This document shows, piece after piece, positions 28,597 through 51,070 of a stretch of 64,000 nucleotides of DNA. The number at the start of each line of letters is the position of its first letter. The stretch's first letter is position 1. The stretch spans positions 15,433 through 79,432 of the forward strand of contig JAEOTH010000028.1 in assembly GCA_016839915.1 (NCBI GenBank), written 5' to 3'. The position numbers and the translations under genes are program-made. The DNA is from Promethearchaeota archaeon. Its GTDB lineage: Archaea; Asgardarchaeota; Lokiarchaeia; Sigyniarchaeales; SOKP01. The notes under the pieces are model-generated. The model searched no databases and was not told the DNA's origin. It was given only the letters and a program-made list of their open reading frames with translations.

Positions 28597-28689
28597 TGGC
28601 GGCCCTCGAGGGGAATCGAACCCCTATCCCTCCGCAGGATAACTGGGTTTGAAGCCCAGCGTCAGAGACCACTCCAACCGCCAAGGGCC
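28597..28689 (-). tRNA. tRNA-Sec (UCA)
   Basis: 93 nt: 9-bp acceptor, 7-bp D stem with 4-nt loop TGGT, anticodon loop CTTCAAA, long variable arm, 4-bp T stem GGGG-TTCGATT-CCCC, discriminator G and encoded CCA. Confidence 0.9.
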
Positions 28690-47203: not shown

Positions 47204-48079
47204 TTATTCATTTTCTTCCTTTTCTTCCTTTTCTTCATTTTCTTCTTTTTCTTCATTAGGAGTTAAAGAGATCTCAGAAATATCTTGTTCATCAACATCA
47301 TCGAGGAGTTTTTTATCTTCCTCACTTATTACTCCTTCTTCCTCTTCAATTATATAATCTGCTTGAGTTTTCGCTAATTTTGCTACTTCCTGTGCTTGAG
47401 CCTTGGTAAGAAGATCCTCTTTGATTTTTATGTCATCACCCATTTTTGTATTGGCTCGCATAATTTTCACTATTATACCTAAAACTCCTGATTTCTGTAT
47501 ACATTGAGCTACACCCTTATCTACGCCTTCTTGTGCCACTTGACCACTTTTTGACATTGTACCAGCGCGAAATATCTGTGTACGAGCTCTTTGGCTAGTT
47601 ACTTTCCCTGAAATGATAATTTCAACTCCCCGAGCCCCTGCATCCATTACCTTTCTTAGGATATAATAACCTGCTCTTCTATAGTGTCTTCCTCTATCTA
47701 AACTATATGCTAACCTTTCTGACATAATCTGCGCATCTAAATCTGGTTCTTGGACCTCCTCAACTTCAATTTGGGGCAATTAGCTTGGTTTTCGATTAGA
47801 AAACAAATTTTCCAGCCCAAATTTTTCTTGGAGGACATCAGTTATCTCTTGAATGCGCTTACCGCCTTTTAGCTAATAAGTCGAAATGACTTCATACTTA
47901 CCAATGACCAGACCTGGTCTTGACGTCTTGAGGGTAATGCGCACTCCAAGAGGTGTTCGTTGTAGTTCCACTCCGGCAAATCCTGCACGGATCAACTCTG
48001 AGCGTAGGTATTCATTTATTTGCATTAGCTTAATTCCTTGCTCTATGAAATTCTTAACAAGAGGCACTTGCTTCACCAA
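47204..48079 (-). CDS. rps3: 30S ribosomal protein S3 (uS3), interrupted by two 30-nt introns (exons 48079..47898, 47867..47809, 47778..47204)
   Basis: ORF track shows two fragments (47873..48079, 47204..47779). Spliced product ..[44 protein letters not shown].. restores the KH GxxG motif and is colinear with archaeal S3; exon sum 816 nt. Confidence 0.85.
47779..47808 (-). other. putative BHB intron B of rps3, 30 nt
   Basis: ATTTGTTTTCTAATCGAAAACCAAGCTAAT; central helix TGGA/GCTA (3 of 4), bulges AAA and ATT, inner hairpin GTTTTC-TAATC-GAAAAC, outer exon-exon helix TTTGGGC/GCCC(C)AAA, in-frame TAA. Confidence 0.7.
47868..47897 (-). other. putative BHB intron A of rps3, 30 nt
   Basis: GTATGAAGTCATTTCGACTTATTAGCTAAA; central helix TGGT/GCTA (two G.U), bulges AAG and AAA, inner hairpin with ATTTC loop, in-frame TAG. 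Confidence 0.7.
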
Positions 48080-48244
48080 TGAGAGTTACTTTTTTTTTTA
48101 TCCATTCTATTTTTTCCATTCTATTTTTTTAACGTGATAAGTGAAGTAAGAAGGTATAAAATTTTAAGTTTATTAAAAAGCGATATAAATCTATAAGGTA
48201 TCAGCTGAAAACGAAAGATTTATATTGAGGGAAAAAACTTGATT

Positions 48245-48655
48245 TCATATTTTTTCTAAAAGAGGAGATAATAAACAAATTAATTCCTGGAGCTCCTTAT
48301 CAATAATATTTACTTCTCCCTCTCCCTCTCTATCTATTGTAAAATTAGTTAATTCAATCAATAACTTGAAGGACCTAACTAATTCTTCTTTTTCTTCATT
48401 ATTAATGTAATCCTTATATTCTAACAAATCATCATGAAATATTGATCTTAACAATGTGTCATAATTTGCTCCTTTATGCTCAAACTCCAAATTGAAGAGA
48501 ATCTTAATATTTCTCTCTAAGTTTTTTAACAGGTGAAGATAATTCCTTACCAAATCGAAATCTCTAAATTCTGGATTATCAGCATTCTTCAAAGAAAACC
48601 TTAATAGATTTAACAATTTATCATAATTCCTTAAAATCCTCTTTGAAGCCAACAT
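48245..48655 (-). CDS. hypothetical helical protein (within insertion between rpl22 and rps3)
   Basis: 136-aa ORF, no family recognised. Confidence 0.35.
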   Translation of the reverse strand: MLASKRILRNYDKLLNLLRFSLKNADNPEFRDFDLVRNYLHLLKNLERNIKILFNLEFEHKGANYDTLLRSIFHDDLLEYKDYINNEEKEELVRSFKLLIELTNFTIDREGEGEVNIIDKELQELICLLSPLLEKI

Positions 48656-48736
48656 AAGTCATTAAAAACATATATGTCTAATCTTAAATAATTAACTAAT
48701 TTTAGCCGAAACAAATTTATAAGAAATAGAAAATAA

Positions 48737-48952
48737 TCAAATTAAGAAATTTGACTTCACAAATCTTACTAAATCATCCCATCTATACCCTGTATAAGTG
48801 TCTAAAAACCGATTCGCATTGCGCTTTAATGAATCTAATGGATAGCCATAATCCTCATGCAATCCTAAATCAATAACAAGCTTACCCATATTATAGTGAT
48901 ACCTACTATTCCCAATTTCTTGGACATGAGAATGAAGCAGCTGAATAGCCAA
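48737..48952 (-). CDS. hypothetical small protein; frame stays open upstream to about 49024
   Basis: 71-aa ORF with TTG start. Confidence 0.3.
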   Translation of the reverse strand: MAIQLLHSHVQEIGNSRYHYNMGKLVIDLGLHEDYGYPLDSLKRNANRFLDTYTGYRWDDLVRFVKSNFLI

Positions 48953-49015
48953 CTCAAAATAATTCTTAACAGGAATATTAAGAGCTTGAAATCTTAAATC
49001 TACAAAGGAAACTCC

Positions 49016-49052
49016 TATATATAGCTATATATATATATACGCGCAATTCGCG
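49016..49052. repeat. (TA)n tract followed by GC-rich hairpin CGCG-CAATT-CGCG
   Basis: tatatatagctatatatatatata then cgcgcaattcgcg, a GC island in AT-rich DNA. Confidence 0.5.
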
Positions 49053-49122
49053 TCGCTTCGTAGAAAGGAAGTCTAAATAGCTTTTTTTGGATTTTGTGGT
49101 AATATCTAATATCTTAATTTTT

Positions 49123-49581
49123 TCAAAGAAGCTTTTCTAAGGATTTTCTCAGCAATTTCACTTGTTCTTCCAAAATTTCTTTCGTTACCATGTCAGTGCT
49201 CTCTTCTGAGAATTCCATTAATATATTGTTGATAATCTCTTCATTTAACTTGCTACTTTTCAAATCAGATTGAACCATCTTATTTATCACTGGTTCTAAA
49301 ATCTTAAAGTTAAGTTCTATTAAGTCGTTACACACTTTCACTCCTTCTTTTGTTAGGCGATACTCTCTTTTATCAGCTCCGGCAATCTGTGGTTTCTTTA
49401 TTAACCATTCCACAAGTTTTTGTTCTTTCAATTTTTTAAGTTTCATATCTAAGGTATGCCGTTTTATATCAGGGAATTTTTCCCTTAGTTTGCTTGAGGT
49501 GGTGTATTTTTCTCCAAATGAAGAGAGAAAAATAAGAAGGTTAATTGTGTCTAGAGTTCCATATAGAATTTTTTTGCTCAT
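49123..49581 (-). CDS. winged-helix (PadR/ArsR-like) transcriptional regulator
   Basis: ..SKLREKFPDIKRHTLDMKLKKLKEQKLVEWL..REYRLTKEG. Confidence 0.5.
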   Translation of the reverse strand: MSKKILYGTLDTINLLIFLSSFGEKYTTSSKLREKFPDIKRHTLDMKLKKLKEQKLVEWLIKKPQIAGADKREYRLTKEGVKVCNDLIELNFKILEPVINKMVQSDLKSSKLNEEIINNILMEFSEESTDMVTKEILEEQVKLLRKSLEKLL

Positions 49582-49646
49582 AGACAGTCATTGAGATTGG
49601 GTTTATATTTAGTAACAATTGTCAATATATTTATAATTGGTCATAT

Positions 49647-49681
49647 ATATGTTGATCATCAATGCATAATATGTTGATCAT
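49647..49681. promoter_or_regulatory. two direct copies of ATATGTTGATCAT spaced 22 bp, candidate operator
   Basis: 49647-49659 and 49669-49681, in the divergent intergenic region between 49123..49581 and 49743..49979; each contains palindrome TGATCA. Confidence 0.4.
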
Positions 49682-49742
49682 TTAAATAGTAAGATTTCTA
49701 TTATATATTTTAAAAGAAGACAATCTTCTGACCTATTTTATT

Positions 49743-49979
49743 ATGACATTGAATCGTGATGAAATTCTTTTTGCTGAGTTGTTATCATTACATTCATTGA
49801 GTTTGAAGGTTCTGGAGAAAAGAATCAAGTCAAGGATAAAACAATTAAAAAAGCAGAATCATTTATATGGAGATTTTTTTCTTAACCATATTATTTTTAG
49901 ATTTAATCGTATACTTGAATTGTTTAATAAAGTAGAGTTCAGGATATTATTTAGGAAAGTTAAGAATTCAAAAAAATAA
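49743..49979 (+). CDS. hypothetical small basic protein
   Basis: 78-aa ORF divergent from the wHTH gene. Confidence 0.3.
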   Translation: MTLNRDEILFAELLSLHSLSLKVLEKRIKSRIKQLKKQNHLYGDFFLNHIIFRFNRILELFNKVEFRILFRKVKNSKK

Positions 49980-49989
49980 CAGTTTTTCA

Positions 49990-50469
49990 TTAACTTGGGA
50001 ATTCATAAATGACAATTTCTATGTGTGATAAGTGCTTAAATTTTGCAGTACTTCGCCCATGAGCTCGAGGAATGTATCTTTTTATAATTCTTCCCCTATG
50101 TGTTGCGGCGTGAATAATTCTACAAAGATCAATATCTAAACCTTTATATTCTGCGTTTGACTCTGCAGATGCAAGAATTTCATATATTCTAGCGGCTGCT
50201 TTTTGAGGATACCTTCCAGCATACCATTTAAATTGCTTTAAATCATGTTTATGAGCAACTTTTTTCTTATGTCTTCTAAATGGTACTGATTGTTCTAACT
50301 GAATCACTTTTTCAAGAAATTTTTTTGCTTGGTCTACTCTTATTCCCTTAATTACGGCACAAATTTCTCTTGCATGTTTTGGTTTAATCCTTATATCTCT
50401 ACCTGATGCTTTCGCTAACCTATCTGCATCATACTTTTGTTCTGTAAAAGAATAATCCCACGTTGGCAC
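49990..50469 (-). CDS. rpl22: 50S ribosomal protein L22 (uL22)
   Basis: ..ASGRDIRIKPKHAREICAVIKG..VPFRRHKKKVAHK. Confidence 0.9.
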   Translation of the reverse strand: MPTWDYSFTEQKYDADRLAKASGRDIRIKPKHAREICAVIKGIRVDQAKKFLEKVIQLEQSVPFRRHKKKVAHKHDLKQFKWYAGRYPQKAAARIYEILASAESNAEYKGLDIDLCRIIHAATHRGRIIKRYIPRAHGRSTAKFKHLSHIEIVIYEFPS

Positions 50470-50494: not shown

Positions 50495-51070
50495 TTATTT
50501 CAATGGAACATATTTTGAACTTCTTGTGGCTCCAATTCCAGGTGATCCGTGTTGTACACGCTTTCTTGTAAGAGAGAACTCTCCAAGATAGTGTCCAATC
50601 ATTTCAGGTTTTATTTCAACAATCTCGAATATTCTTCCGTTATATACACCGATTTTGAGCCCCACCATTTCAGGAAAGATTAACATGTCTCTTACATGTG
50701 TTCTTGTAAGAAGATCCTTACCTCTCTTTTTAGCTCGATATGCTCGTCTTAACCGTTCAAGTAATTTTTTTTGTCTCGGAGGTAAACCTCGTTTTAATGA
50801 TCGTCTTGCTCTAGCTGGCAATAATTGTATAAATTGATCCATATTCATTTTCTTTAATTCTTCTAAGATATAACCTCTATATTTGAATCTTAATCTATCT
50901 AACTCTGCTTCTGTGTCTAATTCCTTTGTTTCCTTGATATCTTCTTTCAATTCTTTCCCTGTTTCGGTTTCAATCTCTTTCTCTGGATCTATATCTTTTT
51001 CTAAATCATTCTGAAGTTCTTCTTCCATTTCTTCTGATTCCTTATCATCAGATTGTTCTTCAGGAGCCAT
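50495..51070 (-). CDS. rps19: 30S ribosomal protein S19 (uS19) with acidic N-terminal extension
   Basis: ..[47 protein letters not shown]; first ~55 aa D/E/K-rich. Confidence 0.9.

Follow-up and report, generated by a model that had tools for sequence, protein, structure and literature searches.

In archaea, protein-mediated splicing of RNA is known only as EndA-type processing (PMC7714728), and in the searchable literature the crenarchaeal cbf5 gene is the only archaeal coding sequence previously reported to carry a BHB intron, to which can be added an intron in a Haloferax 5' UTR (PMC7714728). For cbf5 it has been verified with cDNA that the cut falls between the second and third residues of the bulge (PMC2738675), and removal of the Haloferax volcanii intron, that of HVO_1309, appears to matter for expression (PMC7714728). 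The (αβ)2-type enzyme is characterised by relaxed motifs in RNAs other than tRNA (PMC2738675; PMC4090602), and Asgard archaea have an (αβ)2 EndA with an L1 loop that confers broad specificity (PMC5829648). Two Asgard groups, Atabeyarchaeia and Freyarchaeia, have introns in 92-95% of their tRNA genes, often at non-canonical positions (PMC11291895), and circular rRNA transcripts have been observed in Asgard archaea (PMC12918454). In the literature that we could search, in which subscription journals are thinly covered, we found BHB introns described neither for any rps3 nor for the protein-coding genes of Asgard archaea.

Here we describe two short inserts, A and B, in the uS3 (rps3) gene of a stretch of lokiarchaeial DNA of 64,000 nucleotides (the window), which are very probably archaeal BHB introns within the coding sequence of the uS3 mRNA. 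This reading draws on the anatomy of the gene, the precision of the junctions, the recurrence of inserts at the same two sites in relatives, covariation within the inserts, and selection on exons and introns alike.

The interrupted uS3 gene

Reading frame and translation place the uS3 gene on the minus strand of the window at 47204..48067/48079. The start is probably GTG (48067..48065), as uS3 orthologs begin M(S)PLVKNF; the ORF is open from a TTG at 48079. The frame is unbroken, yet holds one TAG and one TAA, each of which lies in an insert of 30 nt. The limits of both inserts were set with the archaeal BHB cutting rule, giving the following parts.

47898..48067, minus strand: uS3 exon 1, N-terminal KH domain to ...RPGLVIG plus the AA of a Lys codon
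47868..47897, minus strand: predicted intron A, 30 nt, G-UAUGAAGUC-AUUUC-GACUUAUUA-GCUA-AA, with in-frame UAG
47809..47867, minus strand: uS3 exon 2, 59 nt, third base of the Lys codon through first base of a Met codon
47779..47808, minus strand: predicted intron B, 30 nt, A-UUUGUUUUC-UAAUC-GAAAACCAA-GCUA-AU, with in-frame UAA
47204..47778, minus strand: uS3 exon 3, UG of the Met codon, PQIEVEEV..., S3_C domain and K/E-rich C-terminal tail
47206..47204, minus strand: uS3 stop codon TAA

The KH-domain loop GKGG, a GxxG motif, is interrupted by insert A. Once spliced in silico the protein matches both KH_2 (E=9e-17) and Ribosomal_S3_C (E=4e-20) in Pfam.

The gene belongs to a minus-strand ribosomal-protein operon that comprises S19, L22, S3, L29, RNase P p29, S17, L14 and L24. 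The K/E-rich tail of S3 is ~60 residues long (47204..47400, minus) and the S3 orthologs of relatives have similar tails, and S19 (50495..51070, minus) carries an acidic N-terminal extension of ~89 residues ahead of its Pfam domain. A block of ~1.9 kb with three ORFs separates L22 from S3 (48080..49990, minus); one of these ORFs (49123..49581) encodes an HxlR-like winged-helix regulator (Pfam E=3e-6) and the other two (48737..48952 and 48245..48655) have no Pfam match. The block is common to the window and the near-identical locus L081 (see below) and L082 has at least the proximal ORF; in L085, L089 and L092 only about 50-290 nt lie between L22 and S3. Directly 5' of the S3 start (48095..48130, minus) there are two copies of a direct repeat, AAAAATAGAATGGA, and an A-run, which could be promoter or leader sequence made by the upstream insertion. 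The sole tRNA in the 64 kb is a tRNA-Sec at 28597..28689 on the minus strand (ARAGORN; Rfam RF01852, 60.1 bits), and no selenoprotein gene was identified among the in-frame-TGA ORF candidates checked (26524+, 7469+, 4260-), the translations of which look like antisense junk.

Precision of the predicted junctions

When the unspliced translation is aligned with the solved uS3 proteins of Thermococcus (6skf) and Pyrococcus (4v6u) there are exactly two gaps of ten residues, one at A and one at B. The original prediction, which was made from the letters alone, had proposed two stop-bearing inserts of ten codons in a continuous S3 frame and a spliced S3 free of indels relative to archaeal S3; the translation and the two gaps confirm the former, and the latter is borne out by Thermococcus, Pyrococcus and 79 uninterrupted Lokiarchaeial orthologs. 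The interval that it had named, 47779-47897, turns out to be the outer ends of B and A once the BHB rule delimits the inserts. The closest relatives are Promethearchaeota/Lokiarchaeia MAGs, and amongst species representatives uS3 is uninterrupted at both sites in 78 of 80 Lokiarchaeial genes. Both inserts are also present in L081, a locus from an independent Logan assembly that matches the window with 99.9% identity over 2043 bp (47678..49718), and this excludes an assembly artefact.

The cutting rule assumes a fixed layout, namely a 4-nt exon strand, a 3-nt bulge, the hairpin, a 4-nt intron strand and a second 3-nt bulge, with each cut (^) between bulge residues 2 and 3. Joining the exons at A in this way turns AUU GGU AA^A GGC into an AAA (Lys) codon and rebuilds VIG-K-GGKRI, whilst the join at B, CUG GAA A^UG CCC, gives AUG (Met) ahead of PQIEV; the predicted spliced junctions are ...AUUGGUAA^AGGCGG... 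for A and ...CUGGAAA^UGCCCC... for B. In the 79 uninterrupted orthologs VIGKGGKRI is found in 77 and LEMPQIEV in about 70, in keeping with the earlier proposals that A splits the GxxG motif between VIG and KGGKRI and that B lies between FGLE and PQIEVEEV, the second cut in fact falling inside the Met codon of LEMPQIEV. If ten entire codons were simply dropped at B, the residue would be Asn or Leu and not Met. In all 12 distinct introns that we collected the BHB rule produces a Lys codon (AAA) at site A and a Met codon (AUG) at site B, and it also restores the frame where the intron is 31 nt long.

We also searched for ten exact spliced products of seven intron-bearing alleles in a collection of 15 billion proteins and none was present, an absence that counts neither way; an exact look-up of the C-terminal S3 ORF of the window likewise returned no record.

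Recurrence in relatives

Lokiarchaeial MAGs and metagenomes yielded 12 distinct insert sequences, of 30 or 31 nt, at the two S3 sites. Site A is occupied in L082, L083, L084, L085-87 and L089-91, and site B in L027, L040, L082, L084, L085-87 and L092-94, the last being from Loki's Castle, so that A alone, B alone, both and none all occur. These loci came from different sources. Two of them, L027 and L040, are GTDB representatives in which site B is occupied by a stop-bearing insert of 30 nt, and a scan of metagenomes for any 30-nt insert at site A gave L082 and L084, with both inserts, and L083, with A only. Furthermore, the 90%-identity cluster around the N-terminal S3 fragment of the window has 38 members, many of which are S3 N-termini of 57-78 aa that end right after VIG or after FGLEN, for example KKN44047.1 from the Loki's Castle metagenome. 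The contigs of cluster members gave L085-87 (A and B), L089-91 (A only) and L092-94 (B only), and in all of these cases the gene caller had cut S3 in two, one piece with KH_2 and the other with S3_C. One further candidate for a new site-A variant, L088 (JABUBL010001138.1), was rejected: beyond ...PGLVIG, from about locus position 1690, it continues with the C-terminal region of S3 in reverse complement, and so is a chimera of assembly with an inverted repeat, situated at the end of a contig.

The inserts of L085-87 at A and of L092-94 at B are 31 nt long and put the unspliced downstream exon out of frame, so that only exact excision restores uS3, which strengthens the reading as introns. The description of the inserts as in-frame and of 30 nt therefore holds in the window but is not a general property, there being 31-nt versions at both sites elsewhere.

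On a rough NJ tree the intron-bearing genes occupy at least four separate places, and L084, which has both inserts, is 93% identical to the intronless L051. This patchy distribution is the pattern described for cbf5. None of the cluster records examined for S3 has an annotated intron; the public labels of the intron-bearing genes are 'KH domain-containing protein', 'hypothetical protein' or 'S3, partial', amongst others for KKN44047.1, MFW9939891.1, MBA7608186.1 and MFW9972411.1.

Covariation

All 30-nt inserts fit one gap-free frame. Amongst eight distinct sequences aligned in this way 83.7% of cells pair, and the covariation score of 0.637 compares with 0.233±0.044 in shuffles (0/500 reach it) and with no more than 0.19 when the partners are slid. 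With 12 distinct sequences the values are 87.8% of cells paired (63.1±2.8 in shuffles) and a score of 0.698 (0.228±0.039, again 0/500 shuffles), with slid registers at 0.21 or less; the 12-sequence alignment was fitted to the covariance model and so favours the structure somewhat, a bias from which the gap-free alignment of eight is free. Double changes are seen in eight of the nine hairpin pairs and one of the four central pairs of the 12 sequences. The central pair in question is the first, which is U:A in most sequences and A:U in L085 (AGGU:GCCU). The second is G:C or G:U in the counted set, and A:U in L092 (UAGA:GCUA), which lies outside that set. The two G pairs of the central helix never break, and the intron strand that follows the hairpin, GCUA in the window, is GCYN in relatives.

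A covariance model (R1) was built from eight sequences, and the window copies, which are in the training set, score 42.3 bits (A) and 42.8 bits (B). Introns that had been held out were found by the model as well, that of L089 at site A with 44.1 bits and those of L085 at A and B with 33-35 bits. In the 64-kb window R1, with filters off, found just the two S3 sites, the next match having 16.6 bits (E = 0.22). In 511 kb of related operon loci it found only S3 sites; a weak match that recurred near position 1590 in five loci was dismissed as false since it falls inside an intact ORF. That no other gene in these 64 kb plus 511 kb has a copy counts against the reading as BHB introns, being odd for an insertion process that is generally active.

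RNA structure of the inserts

Two splice motifs are predicted.

47867..47903, minus strand: putative relaxed HBh' splice motif for intron A; central helix of exon UGGU with intron GCUA, bulges AA^G (5') and AA^A (3')
47768..47823, minus strand: putative splice motif of intron B, full hBHBh'; bulges AA^A and AU^U, inner stem 9 bp

Both inserts had been proposed to fold as BHB motifs with a common GCTA strand and hairpins of nine pairs with ATTTC or TAATC loops. The GCUA strand and the loops stand; the hairpins fall short of nine perfect pairs, with seven of nine standard at A and eight of nine at B, and the full hBHBh' form applies to B and not to A, which has the relaxed HBh' form. At A the central 4-bp helix, UGGU:GCUA, consists of four pairs including two G-U, and the 3' splice site would lie after it, within AA^A. 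From four site-A sequences RNAalifold gives a fold with the hairpin, the central helix and a 5' bulge of 3 nt but no conserved outer helix; a good outer helix is found at A in L084 only. At B the central strands UGGA (47814..47811) and GCUA (47784..47781) form three pairs and an A.G mismatch, and an outer exon-exon helix is formed by AAUUUGGGC (47823..47815) with GCCC(C)AAAUU (47777..47768). That such a helix exists agrees with the original prediction, which had given it 8-9 bp; we find 9-10 bp with one bulged C. For B the unbiased RNAalifold consensus connects the 9-bp hairpin to a 10-bp exon-exon helix through a symmetric internal loop of 7+7 nt, exactly the space needed by a 4-bp helix and two 3-nt bulges. 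From these folds we would describe B as having full hBHBh' geometry with an imperfect central helix, and A as a relaxed HBh' form.

Both motifs are relaxed rather than strict when all sequences are considered, with three or four canonical pairs out of four in the central helix at A and two or three at B. The B helix always ends in the A.G mismatch and in L027 and L040 also begins with U.U, which leaves two canonical pairs. The spacing of 4 nt plus 3 nt is kept on both strands in all 12 variants, and in all 15 sequences folded the BHB-constrained structure lies only 0-2.9 kcal/mol above the MFE (1.3 kcal/mol for A of the window). The exon strand UGGA, which is set by the choice of Leu codon, is present in all five B-bearing genes and in 18 of 79 intronless ones, and the B outer helix has 7-9 of nine pairs in B-bearing genes compared with 6.56±1.25 in the 79 intronless genes.

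Taken singly, the folding energies of the two inserts (z = -0.7 and -1.7) are not significant. A generic relaxed-BHB scan of the window gave 52,989 matches against about 46,000 in shuffles and did not discriminate; adding an ORF-joining filter left 552 matches, swamped by intergenic gaps, and a sequence-informed scan (hairpin + GCYW + AW) gave 28 matches against 22-42 in shuffles, again without discrimination. In-frame stops between long open stretches elsewhere in the window were considered as further candidates and proved to be adjacent genes or antisense frames. The window is AT-rich, with a G+C of ~30%, and relaxed BHB geometry is common by chance in it, so structure alone is weak evidence. 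Since the fold alone is not significant, it is the precision of the junctions, the recurrence and the covariation that carry the significance.

Selection on exons and introns

The exons of the window and of L082 are 89.5% identical, with 50 synonymous and seven nonsynonymous codon differences. Synonymous third positions differ by 24.8%, compared with one of 60 positions in the two introns together, a degree of intron conservation that has P≈8e-7 at the synonymous rate and 0.007 at the overall exon rate. Purifying selection on the exons, together with the low divergence of the introns, implies that the gene is functional and that the inserts themselves are constrained.

Proposed splicing route and alternative explanations

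We envisage that uS3 is transcribed with both inserts and that each insert would form its 9-bp hairpin in the pre-mRNA. The four bases 3' of the hairpin would then pair with the exon just upstream of the 5' splice site (UGGU for A, UGGA for B), leaving a 3-nt bulge on either strand; at B the exon-exon helix would close the motif (hBHBh'), and at A the closing helix would be weak or missing (HBh'). The splicing endonuclease EndA would be expected to cut between the second and third residues of each bulge, and an RtcB-type ligase to join the exons, yielding Lys (AA^A) in the GKGG loop and Met (A^UG) before PQIEV. The product would be an uninterrupted uS3 of the same length as the intronless orthologs. 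The reading as BHB introns made in the original prediction is supported by the junction codons, by recurrence at the same sites, by compensating changes in the hairpins and by purifying selection on the exons; we infer that A and B are excised and that EndA and RtcB are the enzymes.

Excision might also proceed by another route, through a different structure-specific endonuclease that acts on the hairpin or an unfamiliar form of ligation, and the hairpin is indeed the best-supported structural element, whereas no more than 2-4 pairs make up the central helix and an outer helix is missing at A. We regard this as improbable: the 4-nt plus 3-nt spacing is exact on both strands of all 12 variants, the BHB rule places the junction correctly each time, central-helix pairs covary with the exon strand, and no protein-mediated RNA splicing other than EndA-type processing is known in archaea (PMC7714728). 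Self-splicing group I and group II introns are ruled out by size, the inserts being 30-31 nt and a ribozyme core hundreds of nucleotides; the sole Rfam match in the window at the gathering threshold is the tRNA-Sec. It would seem very unlikely that the ribosome instead hops over each 30-31-nt gap by programmed translational bypassing, as in phage T4 gene 60 and the yeast mitochondrial 'byp' elements. The gaps are short, contain stops and have a hairpin at the start, and the codons that flank A in the window, AAG on the 5' side and AAA on the 3' side, both encode Lys. However, the codon before gap A is AAU (Asn) in L082, L084, L085 and L089, which cannot re-pair at AAA and would put Asn into a loop that is GKGG in 77 of 79 uninterrupted orthologs, whereas BHB cutting always restores Lys. 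At B no pair of take-off and landing codons yields the PQIEV frame or the Met of about 70 orthologs, and the stop ranges from codon 2 to codon 10 of the gap. Bypassing, moreover, makes no use of an outer helix between exons or of a central helix between exon and intron; on this point, and on the AAU before gap A in four lineages, the explanation fails.

It might be argued that the gene is simply damaged, by a MITE-like element or by slippage, or wrongly assembled, since gene callers and public annotations do treat interrupted S3 genes as fragments. This too has very little probability: independent assemblies agree, S3 is in its normal operon place, the exons show the strong purifying selection described above, and insert structure and length are conserved between lineages whose exons have diverged by 12-25%, in a gene for a universal and essential ribosomal protein. 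The remaining explanation is that stop codons are read through or recoded to give a longer uS3 with two insertions of ten residues, for which it can be said that both inserts of the window are multiples of three and keep the frame. We consider it extremely improbable, and as the mechanism it is excluded by the 31-nt inserts of L085-87 (A) and L092-94 (B), which break the frame. It would furthermore require UAG, UAA and UGA all to be read through, although TAA, TGA and TAG terminate long ORFs of the window 46, 10 and 2 times respectively; insert A would sit in the GxxG loop of the KH domain, and the peptides that the inserts would encode are not conserved.

Possible common origin and wider meaning

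Introns A and B have in common the exon context UGGNAA^, an AAUUC-type loop and an AGCYNAW 3' end, and this sharing hints at a common origin by transposition. A common origin of this kind, as has been proposed for tRNA introns (PMC4090602), is speculative here. A wider version, in which A and B are members of a single family of BHB mini-introns of ~30 nt, one that has passed from one UGGNAA^ target site to another in a protein-coding gene of Asgard archaea and is still being gained or lost amongst close relatives, we consider possible but rather doubtful. Should it be true, the archaeal lineage nearest to eukaryotes would have mobile, protein-spliced mRNA introns, and intron removal might control the supply of uS3 or ribosome assembly.

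Two BHB introns in the gene of a universal ribosomal protein would widen the phenomenon to Asgard archaea, the lineage closest to eukaryotes, and relatives with none, A, B or both provide a naturally polymorphic system in which intron gain and loss can be studied. There is also a practical side. The rpS3 gene is a widely used phylogenomic and population marker, and as callers split the interrupted genes, truncated rpS3 calls can, in the case of Lokiarchaeia, distort alignments and estimates of completeness as well as surveys based on marker genes.

Comparison with known systems

The splicing of HAC1/XBP1 by IRE1 and RtcB resembles the proposed route in that a protein endonuclease cuts an mRNA at structured sites, after which a ligase of the RtcB type (or a tRNA ligase) joins the exons. 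The XBP1 intron is 26 nt long, and there too a small intron governs the reading frame. The IRE1 endonuclease is, however, unrelated, it recognises other stem-loops and it is regulated by stress; nothing at S3 shows regulation. The 5' UTR intron of HVO_1309 in Haloferax volcanii (PMC7714728) is alike in that EndA acts on an mRNA, but it interrupts no codon and its host has a strict enzyme of the α2 type.

The BHB introns of archaeal tRNAs, as found in Thermoproteales and in Atabeyarchaeia and Freyarchaeia (PMC11291895; PMC4090602), are similar to those of S3 in occurring more than once per gene and in both hBHBh' and HBh' forms. Their size range is similar, with median lengths of 12-25 nt (PMC4090602), and the presence of related sequences at more than one site has been explained by transposition of introns (PMC4090602), to which the loop and 3' end shared by A and B can be compared. 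They differ in that the host RNA of the S3 introns is an mRNA, so that codons constrain the exon strand and what results is a reading frame and not a tRNA fold.

The closest described system is the crenarchaeal cbf5 intron (Watanabe 2002; Yoshinari 2006; Yokobori 2009, PMC2738675). Both are short introns within a protein-coding sequence, with cutting between the second and third bulge residues (predicted for S3), in hosts with a hetero-oligomeric (αβ)2 endonuclease (for Asgard archaea, from the literature), and both have a patchy distribution amongst relatives that is read as gain and loss. Whilst the splicing of cbf5 is verified by cDNA, the S3 introns are known from sequence. They would extend the known BHB introns of coding sequences to a second gene, which is new in the searchable literature, and that gene is uS3, which encodes a universal ribosomal protein, in Asgard/Lokiarchaeia and not in Crenarchaeota. 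Unlike cbf5, the S3 gene is interrupted twice; the exon context is UGGNAA^ at both sites, and the length of the introns is tightly fixed at 30-31 nt.
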